A stretch of DNA of 64,000 nt from Cyanobacteriota bacterium. Lineage in GTDB: Bacteria > Acidobacteriota > Vicinamibacteria > Vicinamibacterales > UBA2999. This document shows positions 33,092-50,054 of this stretch, piece by piece (position 1 is the stretch's first letter; each line of letters opens with the position of its first letter). Location: the NCBI GenBank assembly GCA_019752015.1, contig JAIEMQ010000021.1, positions 879 through 64,878 on the forward strand, written 5' to 3'. The position numbers were made by a program, and so were the translations under genes. A model generated the notes under the pieces. That model was not told where the DNA came from. It did not search any database and saw nothing but the letters and a program-made list of their open reading frames with translations.

Positions 33092-35551
33092 ATGAAAAGA
33101 CTCACGTCAGTAATTTTCTCCGCGCTCGTGTTTGCCCTTGGTCTCTCTGTTTTTGCAGACCAGAACAAACCCGCGCCGGCAGCATCGCAGCCCGTTGCTT
33201 CACACACCGCCACCGCCATCACTGACTCACAGACTGCCCTCGTGAAGCAGTATTGCGCGACCTGTCACAACGATCGCAACAAGAACAACGCCGGCGGCTT
33301 GACGCTGCAGACGTTCGACGCGGCGAAGGTCGGCCACGACGCCCAGGTGGCGGAAGTCGCCGAGAAGATGATCAAGAAGCTGCGCTCCGGCATGATGCCG
33401 CCGCCCAGCGCGCGGCGTCCCGAGGGCGCGGTGCTGGCGTCGTTTGCCGCGTCGATGGAATCGCGGCTCGATCAGGCCGCGGCGCTCAACCCCAATCCCG
33501 GCCGCCGGCCGTTCCAGCGCCTCAATCGCGCCGAGTACACGCGCACGGTGAACGCGCTGCTGTCGCTCGACGTCGACGTCAACGCCTTCCTGCCGCCCGA
33601 CACGATCAGCGCCGGCTTCGACAACGTCGCGGATGCGCAGACGTTTTCGGCGACGCTGATGGAAGGCTACCTGCGCGCCGCGAGCCGCATCAGCACGCTC
33701 GCGGTCGGCGATCCGAAAGCCAGCGCCTCGGAATTCACCTACAAAGTGCCGCGCACCGGCTCGCAGATGCATCACGTCGAGGGCGCGCCGTTCGGCACGC
33801 GCGGCGGCGTGGCGGTGGAGCACACGTTCCCGGCGGACGGCGACTACAGCTTCCGCATGCAGCTGCACTCGATCCCGACCGGCCAGTTGTTCGGCAGCAC
33901 CGTGCGCGGTGAGTTGATCGAAGTGTCGATCGACGGCGAGCGCGCCGCGGTCCTCGAGATCAACCCGCGCATGAGCGAGGCCGATCCGAACGGCATGAAC
34001 ATCGTGACGCCGCGCGTCCACGTCAAGGCGGGCACGCATCGCCTGTCGGCGGCGTTCGTGCAGCGCTTCGACGCGGTGCCCGACGATCTGCTGCCGCCGA
34101 TCGATCACAGCCTGGCGGATTCACAGATCGGCGCGGGGTTCGGCATCACCACGCTGCCGCACCTCCGCGAGTTCGCGGTCAGCGGCCCGTTCAAGGTCAC
34201 CGGCGTGTCGGAGACGCCGAGCCGCAAGCGCATCTTCACGTGCCGGCCGACGTCGGCGAGCGAAGAGAGCACGTGCGCGGCGGAGATCATCCGCAAGATC
34301 GCGACGCAGGCGTATCGCGGTCCGCTGTCGGCGCAGGACGTCGATGGCCTGACGAAGTTCTACGCGCAGGGACGCAAGGACGGCGGCGATTTCGAGTCGG
34401 GCATCCGCATGGCGCTGCAGGCCATCCTGGCGAGCCCGCGATTCCTGTTCCGTCTCGAGGAAGCGCCGGCCACCGTGCGCGCGGGGCAGAACTACCGCAT
34501 CAGCGATCTCGATCTGGCGACGCGCCTGTCGTTCTTCATCTGGGGCGCGGGTCCCGATGACGAGCTGCTGAAGCTCGCGCAGCGCGGCACATTGCGCGGC
34601 CCCGGCGTGCTGCCGGCGCAGGTCAAGCGCATGCTCGCCGATCCGAAATCGGAAGCGCTGTCGACGCGGTTCGGCGCGCAGTGGCTGCGGTTGCAGGATC
34701 TCGAGAAGATTTATCCGGACGCGCTGCTGTTCCCGTATTACGACTTCAAGCTCGGCGAAGCGCTGCGCAAGGAAACCGAGCTCTTCTTCGACAGCATCGT
34801 CCGGGAAGACCGCAGCCTGCTCGATCTGATCACGGCGGACTACACCTTCGTGAACGAGCGCGTGGCGCGTCACTACGGCATTCCGAACATCAACGGCGAG
34901 AACTTCCAGCGCGTCACGCTCGCCGACGAGAATCGGCGCGGTCTGCTTGGCCAGGGCAGCATCCTCGCGCTGACGTCGGTGGCCGATCGCACCTCCCCGG
35001 TGCTGCGCGGCAAGTGGATCATGGAAGTGCTGCTGGCGTCGCCGCCGCCGGCGCCGCCGCCGAATGTGCCGCTGCTCGATGAGACGAAGGCGGAGTCCGC
35101 CGATGGCGGCATGCTGACGACGCGTCAACGCATGGAGCAGCATCGCGCCAACCCGCAGTGCAACTCCTGCCATCGCGTGATCGATCCGCTCGGCCTCGCG
35201 CTCGAGAATTTCGACGTCACCGGCCGCTGGAGAATCCGCGACAACGGCAACCTGGTTGATCCGGTCGGCGACCTCTACGACGGCACGAAGATGACGGGCC
35301 CGAACGGCCTGCGCGCGGCGCTGTTGAAGCACCAGGACATGTTCTTCACGAGCGTCACCGAGAGCCTGATGACCTACAGCCTCGGCCGCCGCGTCGAGTA
35401 TTTCGACATGCCCGCGATTCGCAGGATCATCCGCGACGCGGCGAAGGACGACAACCGGTTCTCGGCCTACGTGCTGGGAGTGGTGAACAGCCGCGCGTTC
35501 CAGATGGCCCGCGCGGACGCCGTGGACACGACCGACGAGAAGAATCGCTGA
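33092..35551 (+). CDS. Module 1 gene A: large secreted heme-c multidomain protein (planctomycete-type DUF1592/DUF1595/DUF1587/DUF1588/DUF1585-like)
   Basis: Signal peptide '[22 protein letters not shown]'. '[15 protein letters not shown]' and '[22 protein letters not shown]' are two CxxCH motifs. Also '[13 protein letters not shown]', '[24 protein letters not shown]'. Confidence 0.85.
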   Translation: [819 protein letters not shown]

Positions 35552-35590
35552 TTGCAGATTGCAGATTGCAGATTGCAGATTGCTGATTAG
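35550..35590. repeat. Heptanucleotide tandem repeat (GATTGCA)x4 plus GATTGCT plus a partial copy
   Basis: It starts inside the stop codon of gene A1 and ends at the Shine-Dalgarno (aggaga) of gene B1. Confidence 0.9.
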
Positions 35591-35599
35591 GAGAGCCCG

Positions 35600-48344: not shown

Positions 48345-48347
48345 CAG

Positions 48348-50054
48348 ATGCGTAGAGTGTTTGGAATCGTTGCCATCGCAGTCGCGTTGTCGGCCGGCAT
48401 CAATGCCGCTGAGTCGCCGGTCGCTGATGCCGCGGCGCGCGGCGATCGCGACGCGGTCAAGGCCCTGCTCAAGAACGCGGCCGACGTCAATGCCGCGCAG
48501 GGCGACGGCATGACCGCGCTGCACTGGGCGGCGATGAACGGCGATCTCGAGCTCGCGCAGATGCTGATCTTCGCCGGTGCGAACGTCCGTGCGACGACGA
48601 GGCTTGGCACGTATACGCCGCTGTATCTTGCCAGCCAGCAGGGTCACGGCGACGTGATCCGGGCGCTGGTGAAGGCGGGCGCGGATGTCAAAGCCGGCAC
48701 GCCGAACGGCACGTCACCACTCATGGTGGCCGCGGCCTCCGGTGACGTGGCGGCGGTGCGCGCGCTCGTGGAGTCCGGCGCCGATGTGAACGGCAAGGAC
48801 GGCGTGCGCGGCCAGACGCCGATCATGTATGCGGCGGCGTCGAATCGCGCCGCGGTGATCGAATACCTCGCGTCGAAGGGCGCCGATCTCACAGTCACCA
48901 ACAAGGTCTCCGACCTCGCCAACCTCTCGCGCGAAAGCGCGGGCTTTGGCGGCAATCCCCAGGGCGCGATTCCCGGTGGCGGCCAGGGCGGTCCCGGCGG
49001 CGGCGCTCCCGCCGCGGGCGGCCGTCGCGCGCCGATGCCGGGCGTCGATCGCAACTACCAGCTCAACGAGCTGATCATGGCGCAGGGCGGCCTGACGCCG
49101 CTGCTGTATGCGGTGCGCCAGGGCTACATGGAATCCTCCGAGGCCCTCATCAAGGCGGGCGCGGACGTCAATCAGCCGTCGGCGGGCGACAAGACTACAC
49201 CGCTGATCATGGCGATCATCAACGGTCACTTCGATCTCGCGAAGACGCTGCTCGATCGCGGCGCGAACGCGACCGTGGCGGCCGGCAACGGCGCCGGTGC
49301 GCTCTATGCGGTGCTGAACGTCGAATGGGCGCCGAAGGCGCTCTATCCGCAGCCGCAGGCGCACAAGCAACAGAAGATGAGTTATCTCGAGCTGATGAAG
49401 GCGCTGATCGACAAGGGCGCCGACGTCAATGCCCGAACGAAGATGAAGATCTGGTACTCGGGCTACAGCTTCGATCTGTCGGGCGTCGACGAGATCGGCG
49501 CCACGCCGTTCTGGCGCGCCGCGTATGCGAGCGACATCGCGGCCATGAAGATGCTCGTCGCCGCCGGCGCCGATCCGAACCTGCCGACCATGAAGCCGGC
49601 CGGCCGCGCCCGCTTTGGCGACATGCTCGAAGCGCGCGAAGTGATCGATCAGTCAGGCCTGCCGCCCGTTCCGGTCGGCGGCCCGTCAATCACGCCGCTG
49701 CAGGCCGCCTCGGGCGCCGGCTACGGCGAAGGCTTCGGCGCCAATTCGCATCGCTTCGCGCCGACCGGCATGCTGGCGGCGGTGAAGTATCTCGTCGAGG
49801 ATCTCGGCGCCGACGTCAACGCCGCCGATCACGAAGGCAAGACCGCGCTGCACCATGCGGCGTCGCGCGGCGACAACGAAATGATTCTCTACCTGGTGTC
49901 GAAAGGCGCCAACGTCAAGGCCGTCGATCGCGAGGGAAGAACGACGGTGGACATGGCCAACGGGCCCGTGCAGCGCATTCAACCGTTTCCCGAGACGATT
50001 GCCCTCCTGGAAAAGCTCGGAGCAAAGAACAACCATAAGTGCATTTCCTGCTAG
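48348..50054 (+). CDS. Module 3 gene C: secreted ankyrin-repeat protein ending NNHKCISC
   Basis: Sec signal 'MRRVFGIVAIAVALSAGINAAES', ankyrin units, Gly-rich linker 'GGGQGGPGGGAPAAGG', C-terminus '...NNHKCISC'. Confidence 0.85.
   Translation: MRRVFGIVAIAVALSAGINAAESPVADAAARGDRDAVKALLKNAADVNAAQGDGMTALHWAAMNGDLELAQMLIFAGANVRATTRLGTYTPLYLASQQGHGDVIRALVKAGADVKAGTPNGTSPLMVAAASGDVAAVRALVESGADVNGKDGVRGQTPIMYAAASNRAAVIEYLASKGADLTVTNKVSDLANLSRESAGFGGNPQGAIPGGGQGGPGGGAPAAGGRRAPMPGVDRNYQLNELIMAQGGLTPLLYAVRQGYMESSEALIKAGADVNQPSAGDKTTPLIMAIINGHFDLAKTLLDRGANATVAAGNGAGALYAVLNVEWAPKALYPQPQAHKQQKMSYLELMKALIDKGADVNARTKMKIWYSGYSFDLSGVDEIGATPFWRAAYASDIAAMKMLVAAGADPNLPTMKPAGRARFGDMLEAREVIDQSGLPPVPVGGPSITPLQAASGAGYGEGFGANSHRFAPTGMLAAVKYLVEDLGADVNAADHEGKTALHHAASRGDNEMILYLVSKGANVKAVDREGRTTVDMANGPVQRIQPFPETIALLEKLGAKNNHKCISC

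Follow-up and report, generated by a model that had tools for sequence, protein, structure and literature searches.

The window analysed here, a 64-kb stretch of a Vicinamibacterales (Acidobacteriota) chromosome with a GC content of 65%, contains at positions 33092-50054 three copies of a module of three genes, A, B and C. A encodes a PSCyt3/PSD multidomain protein with two predicted haem-attachment motifs, B a DUF1552 (HXXSHH) protein with a putative twin-arginine translocation (Tat) leader and C an ankyrin-repeat protein with a predicted signal peptide. The host is a soil acidobacterium with the three diverged copies in tandem and, followed by a further gene, D (DUF5916), these form a closely packed unit of ten genes on the same strand. 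A-B-C is a conserved module whose genes are inherited together, and the three copies are ancient paralogues, each kept under selection.

The conservation of the module was established by two scans in opposite directions. The first used an alignment of B on one genome per GTDB species and gave 77 loci with B 66-96% identical, in which 104 B genes were counted with hidden Markov models built from the A, B, C and D proteins of the window itself. A is directly upstream of B in 78 of the 88 cases judged. Of the 83 cases judged downstream of B, 64 have C as the next gene, 8 a further A and 1 D, and the other 10 have none of the three. The reverse scan, made on metagenome contigs with an alignment of C, gave 79 loci with C 55-87% identical, and B was identified directly upstream of C in all the loci with enough sequence to judge (62/62), so this type of ankyrin family appears exclusive to A-B pairs. 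Clustering of the genes up- and downstream of the arrays identified no other recurrent partner. Five of the ten B genes without A, C or D downstream are near-identical B-only loci of 'Ca. Marinacidobacterales' (L046, L047, L049, L050 and L055). In these genomes of 9-10 Mb five near-identical DUF1552 genes are scattered round the chromosome, with neither a full A gene nor an ankyrin gene at the loci, and they look like copies of a repeated element or the product of recent dispersal.

The ankyrin gene is not universal to A-B pairs and marks one subfamily, comprising Vicinamibacteria and their relatives, one Gemmatimonadota locus (L074, carrying A-B-C) and one Novosphingobium replicon. In the latter, a megaplasmid, an A gene with the same Pfam architecture is followed by B (37% identical) and by a 444-aa ankyrin protein that has generic repeat similarity to C only and lacks the CxxC found at the end of C. 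No ankyrin gene was identified at the A-B pairs of Planctomyces sp. SH-PL62, Chondrinema litorale (Bacteroidota) and Sphingobium herbicidovorans. In the last organism (plasmid pMSHV, L085) the pair consists of a DUF1592 protein of short length and a DUF1552 protein, and behind it lie genes for cytochrome c, a cytochrome b/b6-domain protein and a short-chain dehydrogenase/reductase, neighbours that hint at a link to membrane electron transfer. Tandem arrays are common in the clade, in forms such as ABC-ABC-A... and ABC-AB-AB, and therefore triplication is not special in itself. The initial annotation, made from the sequence of the window alone, had taken the ankyrin gene for a fixed third partner and had not recognised this or the triplicated operon as described; the synteny holds in other genomes, whereas the ankyrin-less pairs and the ABC-AB-AB arrays limit the first claim and the frequency of tandem multiplication limits the second. 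The homologues carry names of Vicinamibacterales or Acidobacteriota. Eight loci with B 68-94% identical to B1 of the window (L005, L010, L013, L016, L025, L029, L066 and L067) are on contigs titled as 'Acidimicrobiia' or 'Bifidobacteriaceae' metagenome-assembled genomes, labels that are probably wrong unless the bins are mixed.

The age of the triplication was assessed in the closest relatives (L001-L003, L005-L007, L009, L014, L016, L017, L025 and L038). Each of their genes shares 76-96% identity with the window copy of equal position, the 1-2-3 order being retained, and its similarity to the two remaining window copies is mostly lower by 12-29 points; A1 orthologues, for instance, are 76-85% identical in L001, L005-L007 and L009. 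In a neighbour-joining tree of 107 B sequences (no bootstrap) B1, B2 and B3 are placed in three separate clades, each with orthologues elsewhere. Single A-B-C modules of the module-3 clade are widespread and, in the lineage of the window, are followed by D. The presence of position-specific orthologues in the same order indicates that the triplication is old and retained, as had been proposed at first from the divergence of the copies, and is neither a recent amplification nor an artefact.

The A1, A2 and A3 proteins are, by their profile matches, members of the PSCyt3/PSD multidomain group (DUF1592 group). The order of the Pfam domains is PSCyt1/cytochrome c, PSD3, PSD5, PSD4, PSCyt3 and PSD2 in the three copies. 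PSD3/DUF1587, PSD5/DUF1595, PSD4/DUF1592, PSCyt3/DUF1588 and PSD2/DUF1585 are above gathering score in all of them, with E values of 1e-43 to 1e-44 for PSD4/DUF1592; the N-terminal PSCyt1/Cytochrome_CBB3 matches are weaker than those of the other domains. The assignment rests on the five domains together with the CxxCH of PSCyt3. Two CxxCH motifs, at residues 55-59 and 690-694 of A1, are invariant in 61 homologues, as is the CNSCH form of the PSCyt3 motif, and in the full-length homologues the N-terminal motif is kept in 84 of 86 and that of PSCyt3 in 86 of 86. A is accordingly worded here as a predicted dihaem protein. An invariant GMMPP was identified downstream of the first CxxCH. Between paralogues the best-conserved part is PSCyt3 (81%) and the least conserved are the cytochrome c domain and a beta-sandwich (60%). 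The latter, at about residues 214-364 between PSD3 and PSD5, is the only region of A with structure matches. They are to CBM6, CBM51 and an alginate-binding carbohydrate-binding module (CBM); all are weak (best E 8e-3) and suggest weakly that the sandwich may be CBM-like. CBM2 and X158 are not among the Pfam domains of A, and no NCBIfam family model matches A or B. The AlphaFold2 model of A is poor (predicted local distance difference test, pLDDT, 54).

The B1, B2 and B3 proteins are assigned by profile score and motif to the HXXSHH/DUF1552 family (PF07586), with E values of about 1e-85 and 284-288 bits against a cut-off of 30. Positions H340, S343, H344 and H345 of the HxxSHH motif are invariant, and the invariant histidines are ten in total: H56, H120, H297, H340, H344, H345, H362, H402, H404 and H424. 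Across 60-74 homologues the stretches FHxASHH and GSPMGxSNxHNHKRCPLF, the CxxCH pair of A and the SRRT leader of B show little or no variation. These motifs of the initial annotation are thus conserved well beyond the window, and the DUF1592/1595/1587/1588/1585 and DUF1552 families suggested there for A and B were recovered above gathering score. The leader, SRRTMLRGLGVTMALP, comprises a twin-arginine motif followed by a hydrophobic stretch; S10, R11 and R12 are invariant among homologues and the Pfam TAT_signal model gives a weak match in 64 of 74 of them, which makes B a predicted Tat substrate.

Confidence in the AlphaFold2 model of B is low to moderate (pLDDT 63, predicted template modelling score 0.69), and its low-confidence segments, 107-142, 339-345 and 396-404, are the active-site loops. 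Nearly all of the 50 listed Foldseek matches in the PDB belong to the alkaline-phosphatase superfamily (S1 sulfatases, ENPP, iPGM, LtaS, YejM and phosphonate monoester hydrolase). Scores are weak, with a best E of 3e-3, a probability of 0.95 and template modelling (TM) scores of 0.19-0.35 from a model of pLDDT 63, and they constitute weak evidence that B may have an alkaline-phosphatase-superfamily-like fold. E53, also invariant, is at the end of the first core beta-strand, where the enzymes of this superfamily place a metal ligand. The alignments used for modelling were shallow, with homologues at least 72% identical plus the own paralogues of the window at 64-75%, and because the resulting models are poor the fold results for A and B are to be read as indicative. 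At the sequence level, none of 74 B homologues could be linked to Sulfatase, DUF1501, Metalloenzyme or Phosphodiest by Pfam even at E<=10, and searches of all PDB chains with A, B and D, whether by single sequence or by profile, yielded no meaningful match and no solved relative. The S1 sulfatase signature [CS]xPxR is missing from the B consensus and from all the open reading frames (ORFs) searched; a sulfatase gene for profile comparison was sought in 1.2 Mb of retrieved loci and none was found. An identity of B as an S1 formylglycine sulfatase is not supported, as neither [CS]-x-P-x-R nor a Pfam Sulfatase match is present.

The C1, C2 and C3 proteins are ankyrin-repeat proteins with signal peptides, as first described, with Ank and Ank_2 matches of E about 1e-58 to 1e-65. 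They are more than plain repeat arrays. Each starts with a five-repeat ankyrin block, followed by a Gly/Pro/Gln-rich linker (residues 191-255 in C1) and a second ankyrin block, and an irregular yet conserved region precedes the last ankyrin block. The C termini have the form NNH(K/R)C(V/I)(S/T)C, encoded on the plus strand at 38763-38786, 44389-44412 and 50031-50054. This CxxC end, overlooked in the initial annotation together with gene D, is conserved: all of the 120 listed C1 homologues, at least 80% identical, end in KCVSC, and the terminal KC(V/I)(S/T)C is kept in 73 of the 79 C homologues of the genome loci. A search of representatives with the C-terminal half was swamped by giant generic ankyrin proteins, although it also gave about 25 clusters of 540-730-aa proteins matching C end to end. 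The NCBIfam matches of C are sub-threshold repeat matches only. C as a Legionella Dot/Icm ankyrin effector or as MzaA was rejected, with 100-127 bits against cut-offs of 450-1400, a similarity of repeats only. Hydrophobic N-terminal leaders were identified in A, C and D.

The D protein is assigned to DUF5916 (PF19313) on a Pfam score of 57.3 bits, above the gathering cut-off of 22.6, in a match that covers profile positions 7-86 of 572 only. Weak signals of OMP_b-brl (E 0.003) and, in the N-terminal region, of CBM9_1 (E 0.016), together with a C-terminal Phe, are weak indications of an outer-membrane beta-barrel protein with a CBM9-like region. The junction between a C3-type gene and D is repeated in L017, L097, L103, L122, L124, L126, L139 and L140. 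D was identified downstream of about 4 of 37 genome arrays and in 7 of 52 metagenome cases, mostly behind a C of the module-3 type. The unit had been described as one of nine genes; their tight spacing stands, and because the DUF5916 gene overlaps C3 the number is probably ten.

The features are collected in Table 1. An ORF listing of the window confirmed the nine plus-strand ORFs with the coordinates and junctions first reported. The gaps between them are 48, 10, 4, 39, 3, 42 and 3 nt, with one 16-nt overlap (C2/A3). Automatic ORF extension moved the start of A1 to 33032 (TTG) and that of C1 to 36984 (GTG); the ATG starts of the table (33092 and 37023) yield normal signal peptides. The public gene call for the A1 protein (P0241) has 769 aa and is N-terminally shortened, with loss of the signal peptide; the longer start is supported by most listed homologues, which span 810-860 aa. 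The G+C content at third codon positions (GC3) is 0.84-0.90 in the nine ORFs, as expected of real genes in a 65% GC genome. In pairwise comparison the copies are 63-65% (A), 72-75% (B) and 59-62% (C) identical as proteins, and the modules about 75% identical as DNA. No further A-B-C copy was found elsewhere in the 64-kb window. A consensus promoter scan gave 2 promoter-like sites against 2.1 expected, and the sole plus-strand terminator-like site of the consensus scan is inside D, with none between module genes. This spacing and the lack of plus-strand intergenic terminators are consistent with a single transcription unit for the module genes.

Table 1. Genes of the triple A-B-C array, the gene that follows it and the gene pair divergent from it
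Feature	Position	Strand	Basis and remarks
A1, predicted Sec-signal dihaem multidomain protein, 819 aa	33092-35551	+	Pfam
B1, DUF1552 (HXXSHH) protein with putative Tat leader, 470 aa	35600-37012	+	Pfam E 1e-85, SRRT leader
C1, signal-peptide ankyrin-repeat protein with Gly-rich linker, C-terminal HKCVSC, 587 aa	37023-38786	+	Pfam, sequence
A2, 833 aa	38791-41292	+	Pfam; position-specific orthologues 80-91% identical
B2, 467 aa	41332-42735	+	Pfam; own B2 clade in neighbour-joining tree
C2, C-terminal HRCITC, 557 aa	42739-44412	+	Pfam, sequence
A3, GTG start, 16-nt overlap with C2, 833 aa	44397-46898	+	Pfam, ORF list
B3, 467 aa	46941-48344	+	Pfam; B3 clade widespread as single A-B-C module
C3, C-terminal HKCISC, 568 aa	48348-50054	+	Pfam, sequence
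D, DUF5916 protein, 787 aa	50039-52402	+	Pfam, signal peptide; 16-nt overlap with C3 stop
Sulfite-oxidase-like molybdoenzyme (Oxidored_molyb + Mo-co_dimer)	31607-33001	-	divergent from A1
Cytochrome c gene	31020-31607	-	just downstream of molybdoenzyme on same strand

The molybdoenzyme and cytochrome c genes (31020-33001) form a SorAB-like pair, syntenic in the closest relatives only. Farther upstream of A1 are OmpH and a cytochrome c/Cu-monooxygenase-like gene. A functional tie of these neighbours to the array was rejected, because their conservation is limited to the closest syntenic genomes. The 987-aa minus-strand ORF at 27407-30370 is probably real in its HupE/UreJ part only, and relatives call a 357-aa gene there. 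It overlaps a plus-strand ORF at 28946-30379 with a cytochrome c and a Cu2-monooxygenase-C-like region, whose conservation is 84-92% along the whole ORF in four relatives and 89% over a partial match in a fifth; the plus-strand ORF is the likelier gene across the overlap. Two long ORFs without a Pfam match, 17573-20365 (minus strand, 930 aa) and 61846-63309 (plus strand, 487 aa), show GC3 of the coding type. Elsewhere the window comprises ordinary chromosomal genes.

The PSCyt and PSD domains are said to have been named by Studholme et al. in 2004. Pairs of the A-B type (PSCyt3/PSD with DUF1552) were recorded without a function by He et al. 2017 and nothing was known of what they do, still so in that year (PMC5615132). 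Genomes of Planctomycetota and Verrucomicrobia contain many copies each of these pairs and of a sister system with DUF1501 (PMC5615132, PMC3542564). The planctomycete and verrucomicrobial pairs share with the modules of the window the Pfam architecture of A, the family of B, the position of A immediately upstream, the Tat leader of B and the CxxCH motifs of A. The window modules differ in the addition of the CxxC ankyrin partner and, in one lineage, of the putative DUF5916 barrel; the planctomycete locus L083 differs further in that A is split, a DUF1080 gene lies downstream and an ankyrin gene is missing. The DUF1501 + PSCyt1/PSCyt2/PSD1 module of Planctomycetes-Verrucomicrobia-Chlamydiae bacteria, for which Kamneva et al. 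2012 proposed a role in electron transport, is likewise formed by a Tat-exported protein and a large multidomain partner with haem motifs, often with carbohydrate-binding domains, and is multiplied per genome (PMC3542564). It differs in having DUF1501 instead of DUF1552 and PSCyt2/PSD1 instead of PSCyt3/PSD2-5, and no ankyrin partner is described for it. Our literature search, of incomplete coverage, gave no functional characterisation of A or B and no mention of the ankyrin partner, in line with the earlier view that these pairs lack an assigned function; A and B fell in no characterised family, and the strict ankyrin partner appears undescribed.

Two further proteins offer partial comparisons. 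AnkB of Pseudomonas aeruginosa is an ankyrin protein, described as periplasmic, without which KatB does not reach its full activity (Howell et al. 2000, PMC94626; cited in PMC12754779). There an ankyrin gene also adjoins the gene of a haem enzyme, the likeness for C itself being one of synteny; the partner of AnkB is a catalase and not a PSCyt/DUF1552 pair. The Gly-rich linker and the C-terminal CxxC are features of C, and the two proteins are likened by description only. AnkB is much smaller than C. Cbp2D of Cellvibrio japonicus, a proposed extracellular electron-transfer protein, resembles A in its c-type cytochrome domains and DUF1587 (PSD3) and differs in its CBM2, X158 (YceI-like) and FN3 domains, of which A lacks CBM2 and X158; the accessible part of the source mentions no DUF1552 partner or ankyrin gene for it (PMC8981238).

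The reading we favour, held tentatively and at somewhat less than even chances, is that A-B-C encodes a haem-linked metalloenzyme complex of the periplasm, in which the ankyrin protein acts as scaffold or maturation factor. Each module would form a complex outside the cytoplasm, all three proteins bearing export signals. B would be the catalytic subunit, exported folded via Tat and presumably metal-loaded beforehand, with an alkaline-phosphatase-superfamily-like core and a His-rich centre (HxxSHH, HNH). A would be exported via Sec and carry two c-type haems, one in an N-terminal class-I-like domain and one at the CxxCH of PSCyt3; with its CBM-like beta-sandwich it could bind the substrate or a partner and tie the reaction of B to the respiratory electron-transfer chain. 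The cytochrome c and b neighbours in Sphingobium and the reasoning of Kamneva et al. support such an electron-transfer role of A. C would be a periplasmic ankyrin solenoid ending in CxxC that binds the cognate A and/or B, either holding them as a scaffold or aiding assembly or maturation by handling thiols or metal; the AnkB-KatB precedent fits this. That each module keeps its own C suggests copy-specific protein contacts. D would be an outer-membrane barrel with a CBM9-like domain, supplying the substrate or anchoring the system in this lineage, and the three modules would most likely differ in substrate.

Several points weigh against this complex. Both structure models are poor (pLDDT 63 for B and 54 for A), and their fold matches, with a best E of 3e-3 and 8e-3 and TM scores of 0.1-0.35, are weak. 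The enzymes of the alkaline-phosphatase superfamily act as hydrolases or transferases and not in redox reactions, which leaves the catalytic need for haems unexplained. The ABC-AB-AB arrays and the ankyrin-less A-B pairs indicate that C is not always needed one-to-one, D is scarce (about 10-15% of arrays) and the genome context offers no clue to the substrate.

An unlikely alternative, though the one that survives best, is that C acts as a dedicated and transient maturation factor and not as a subunit, since its basic-Cys-x-x-Cys end resembles thiol-redox and metal-delivery motifs. C would keep the CxxCH cysteines of apo-A reduced for haem attachment at the unusual PSCyt3 site, or would deliver metal to B or insert it there, and then leave. 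The end in question resembles the RCxxC of CcmH-type proteins. Its conservation in 73/79 genome-locus homologues and in 120/120 listed C1 homologues favours this reading, ABC-AB-AB arrays suggest that one C can serve several A-B pairs, and AnkB, on which the full activity of KatB depends, has not been presented as a subunit of the catalase. Three modules that each keep their own diverged C are a better fit for stoichiometric, copy-specific contacts, and the Novosphingobium ankyrin partner lacks the CxxC.

Less probable still is that the module is an accessory of oxidative polymer degradation comparable to Cbp2D/E of Cellvibrio, in which A would bind a polysaccharide or a polymer of the lignocellulose type by means of its beta-sandwich and pass electrons to an oxidative enzyme, and B would process the products. 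Cbp2D, which has DUF1587 alongside c-type cytochrome domains, has been implicated in the use of cellulose (PMC8981238), a Cellvibrio CBM2-DUF1592 protein was among the CAZy-annotated proteins of a lignocellulose-degrading community studied by multi-omics (PMC6004670) and CBMs in PSCyt proteins were noted by He et al. 2017 (PMC5615132). The CBM-like fold of A and the weak CBM9-like signal of D would agree with it. The CBM-like matches are weak, however, and no lytic polysaccharide monooxygenase, glycoside hydrolase or other carbohydrate-active enzyme gene was identified in the window or recurring near the arrays; the leaders point to export from the cytoplasm and nothing points to secretion past the outer membrane.

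We give an equally low chance to B being an ordinary metal-dependent hydrolase, an esterase of the sulfatase or phosphatase kind, with the haems of A in a structural or sensory role and no electron transfer. All the fold neighbours of B are alkaline-phosphatase-superfamily hydrolases or transferases, the only fold class that its low-confidence model matches (S1 sulfatases, ENPP, LtaS/EptA and iPGM). B differs from that superfamily in having no detectable sequence similarity to it and no CxPxR, and in presenting the HxxSHH/HNH set, a Tat leader and an obligate haem-protein partner. Such a hydrolase would agree poorly with the missing S1 signature, with the almost perfect conservation of both CxxCH motifs in 86 homologues and with the cytochrome c and cytochrome b genes adjoining the Sphingobium pair. 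That the repeat is an assembly artefact or a set of decaying duplicates has next to no chance: no support for it was found, and it is contradicted by copies only about 75% identical in DNA, by nine intact ORFs with coding-type GC3 and by the same 1-2-3 array on independent contigs of other samples.

What is new here, on a known but uncharacterised system, is the strict ankyrin partner ending in CxxC, the DUF5916 gene that accompanies some arrays and the triple array with its conserved positions. The exclusive ankyrin partner, apparently periplasmic, is the notable part, triplication being unremarkable for the family. PSCyt/PSD + DUF1552 pairs were found in this study across Acidobacteriota, and one large subfamily of them has an exclusive third partner, so A-B-C is a defined set of three proteins for co-expression and structure work. 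Novosphingobium sp. KACC 22771 is a cultivable carrier of an A-B-ankyrin set, and the C-terminal CxxC opens a testable idea of maturation or scaffolding. The bacterial ankyrin repeats of this family apparently work within the cell envelope rather than as effectors aimed at a host. In the broadest reading, which is doubtful at present, A-B-C would be an unrecognised three-component periplasmic enzyme system, formed by a divergent and His-rich branch of the alkaline-phosphatase fold (DUF1552), a dihaem PSCyt3 redox protein and an obligate, family-specific CxxC ankyrin subunit or maturase, with tandem paralogues that differ in substrate. If true, this would be the first functional handle on the PSCyt/DUF1552 pairs.

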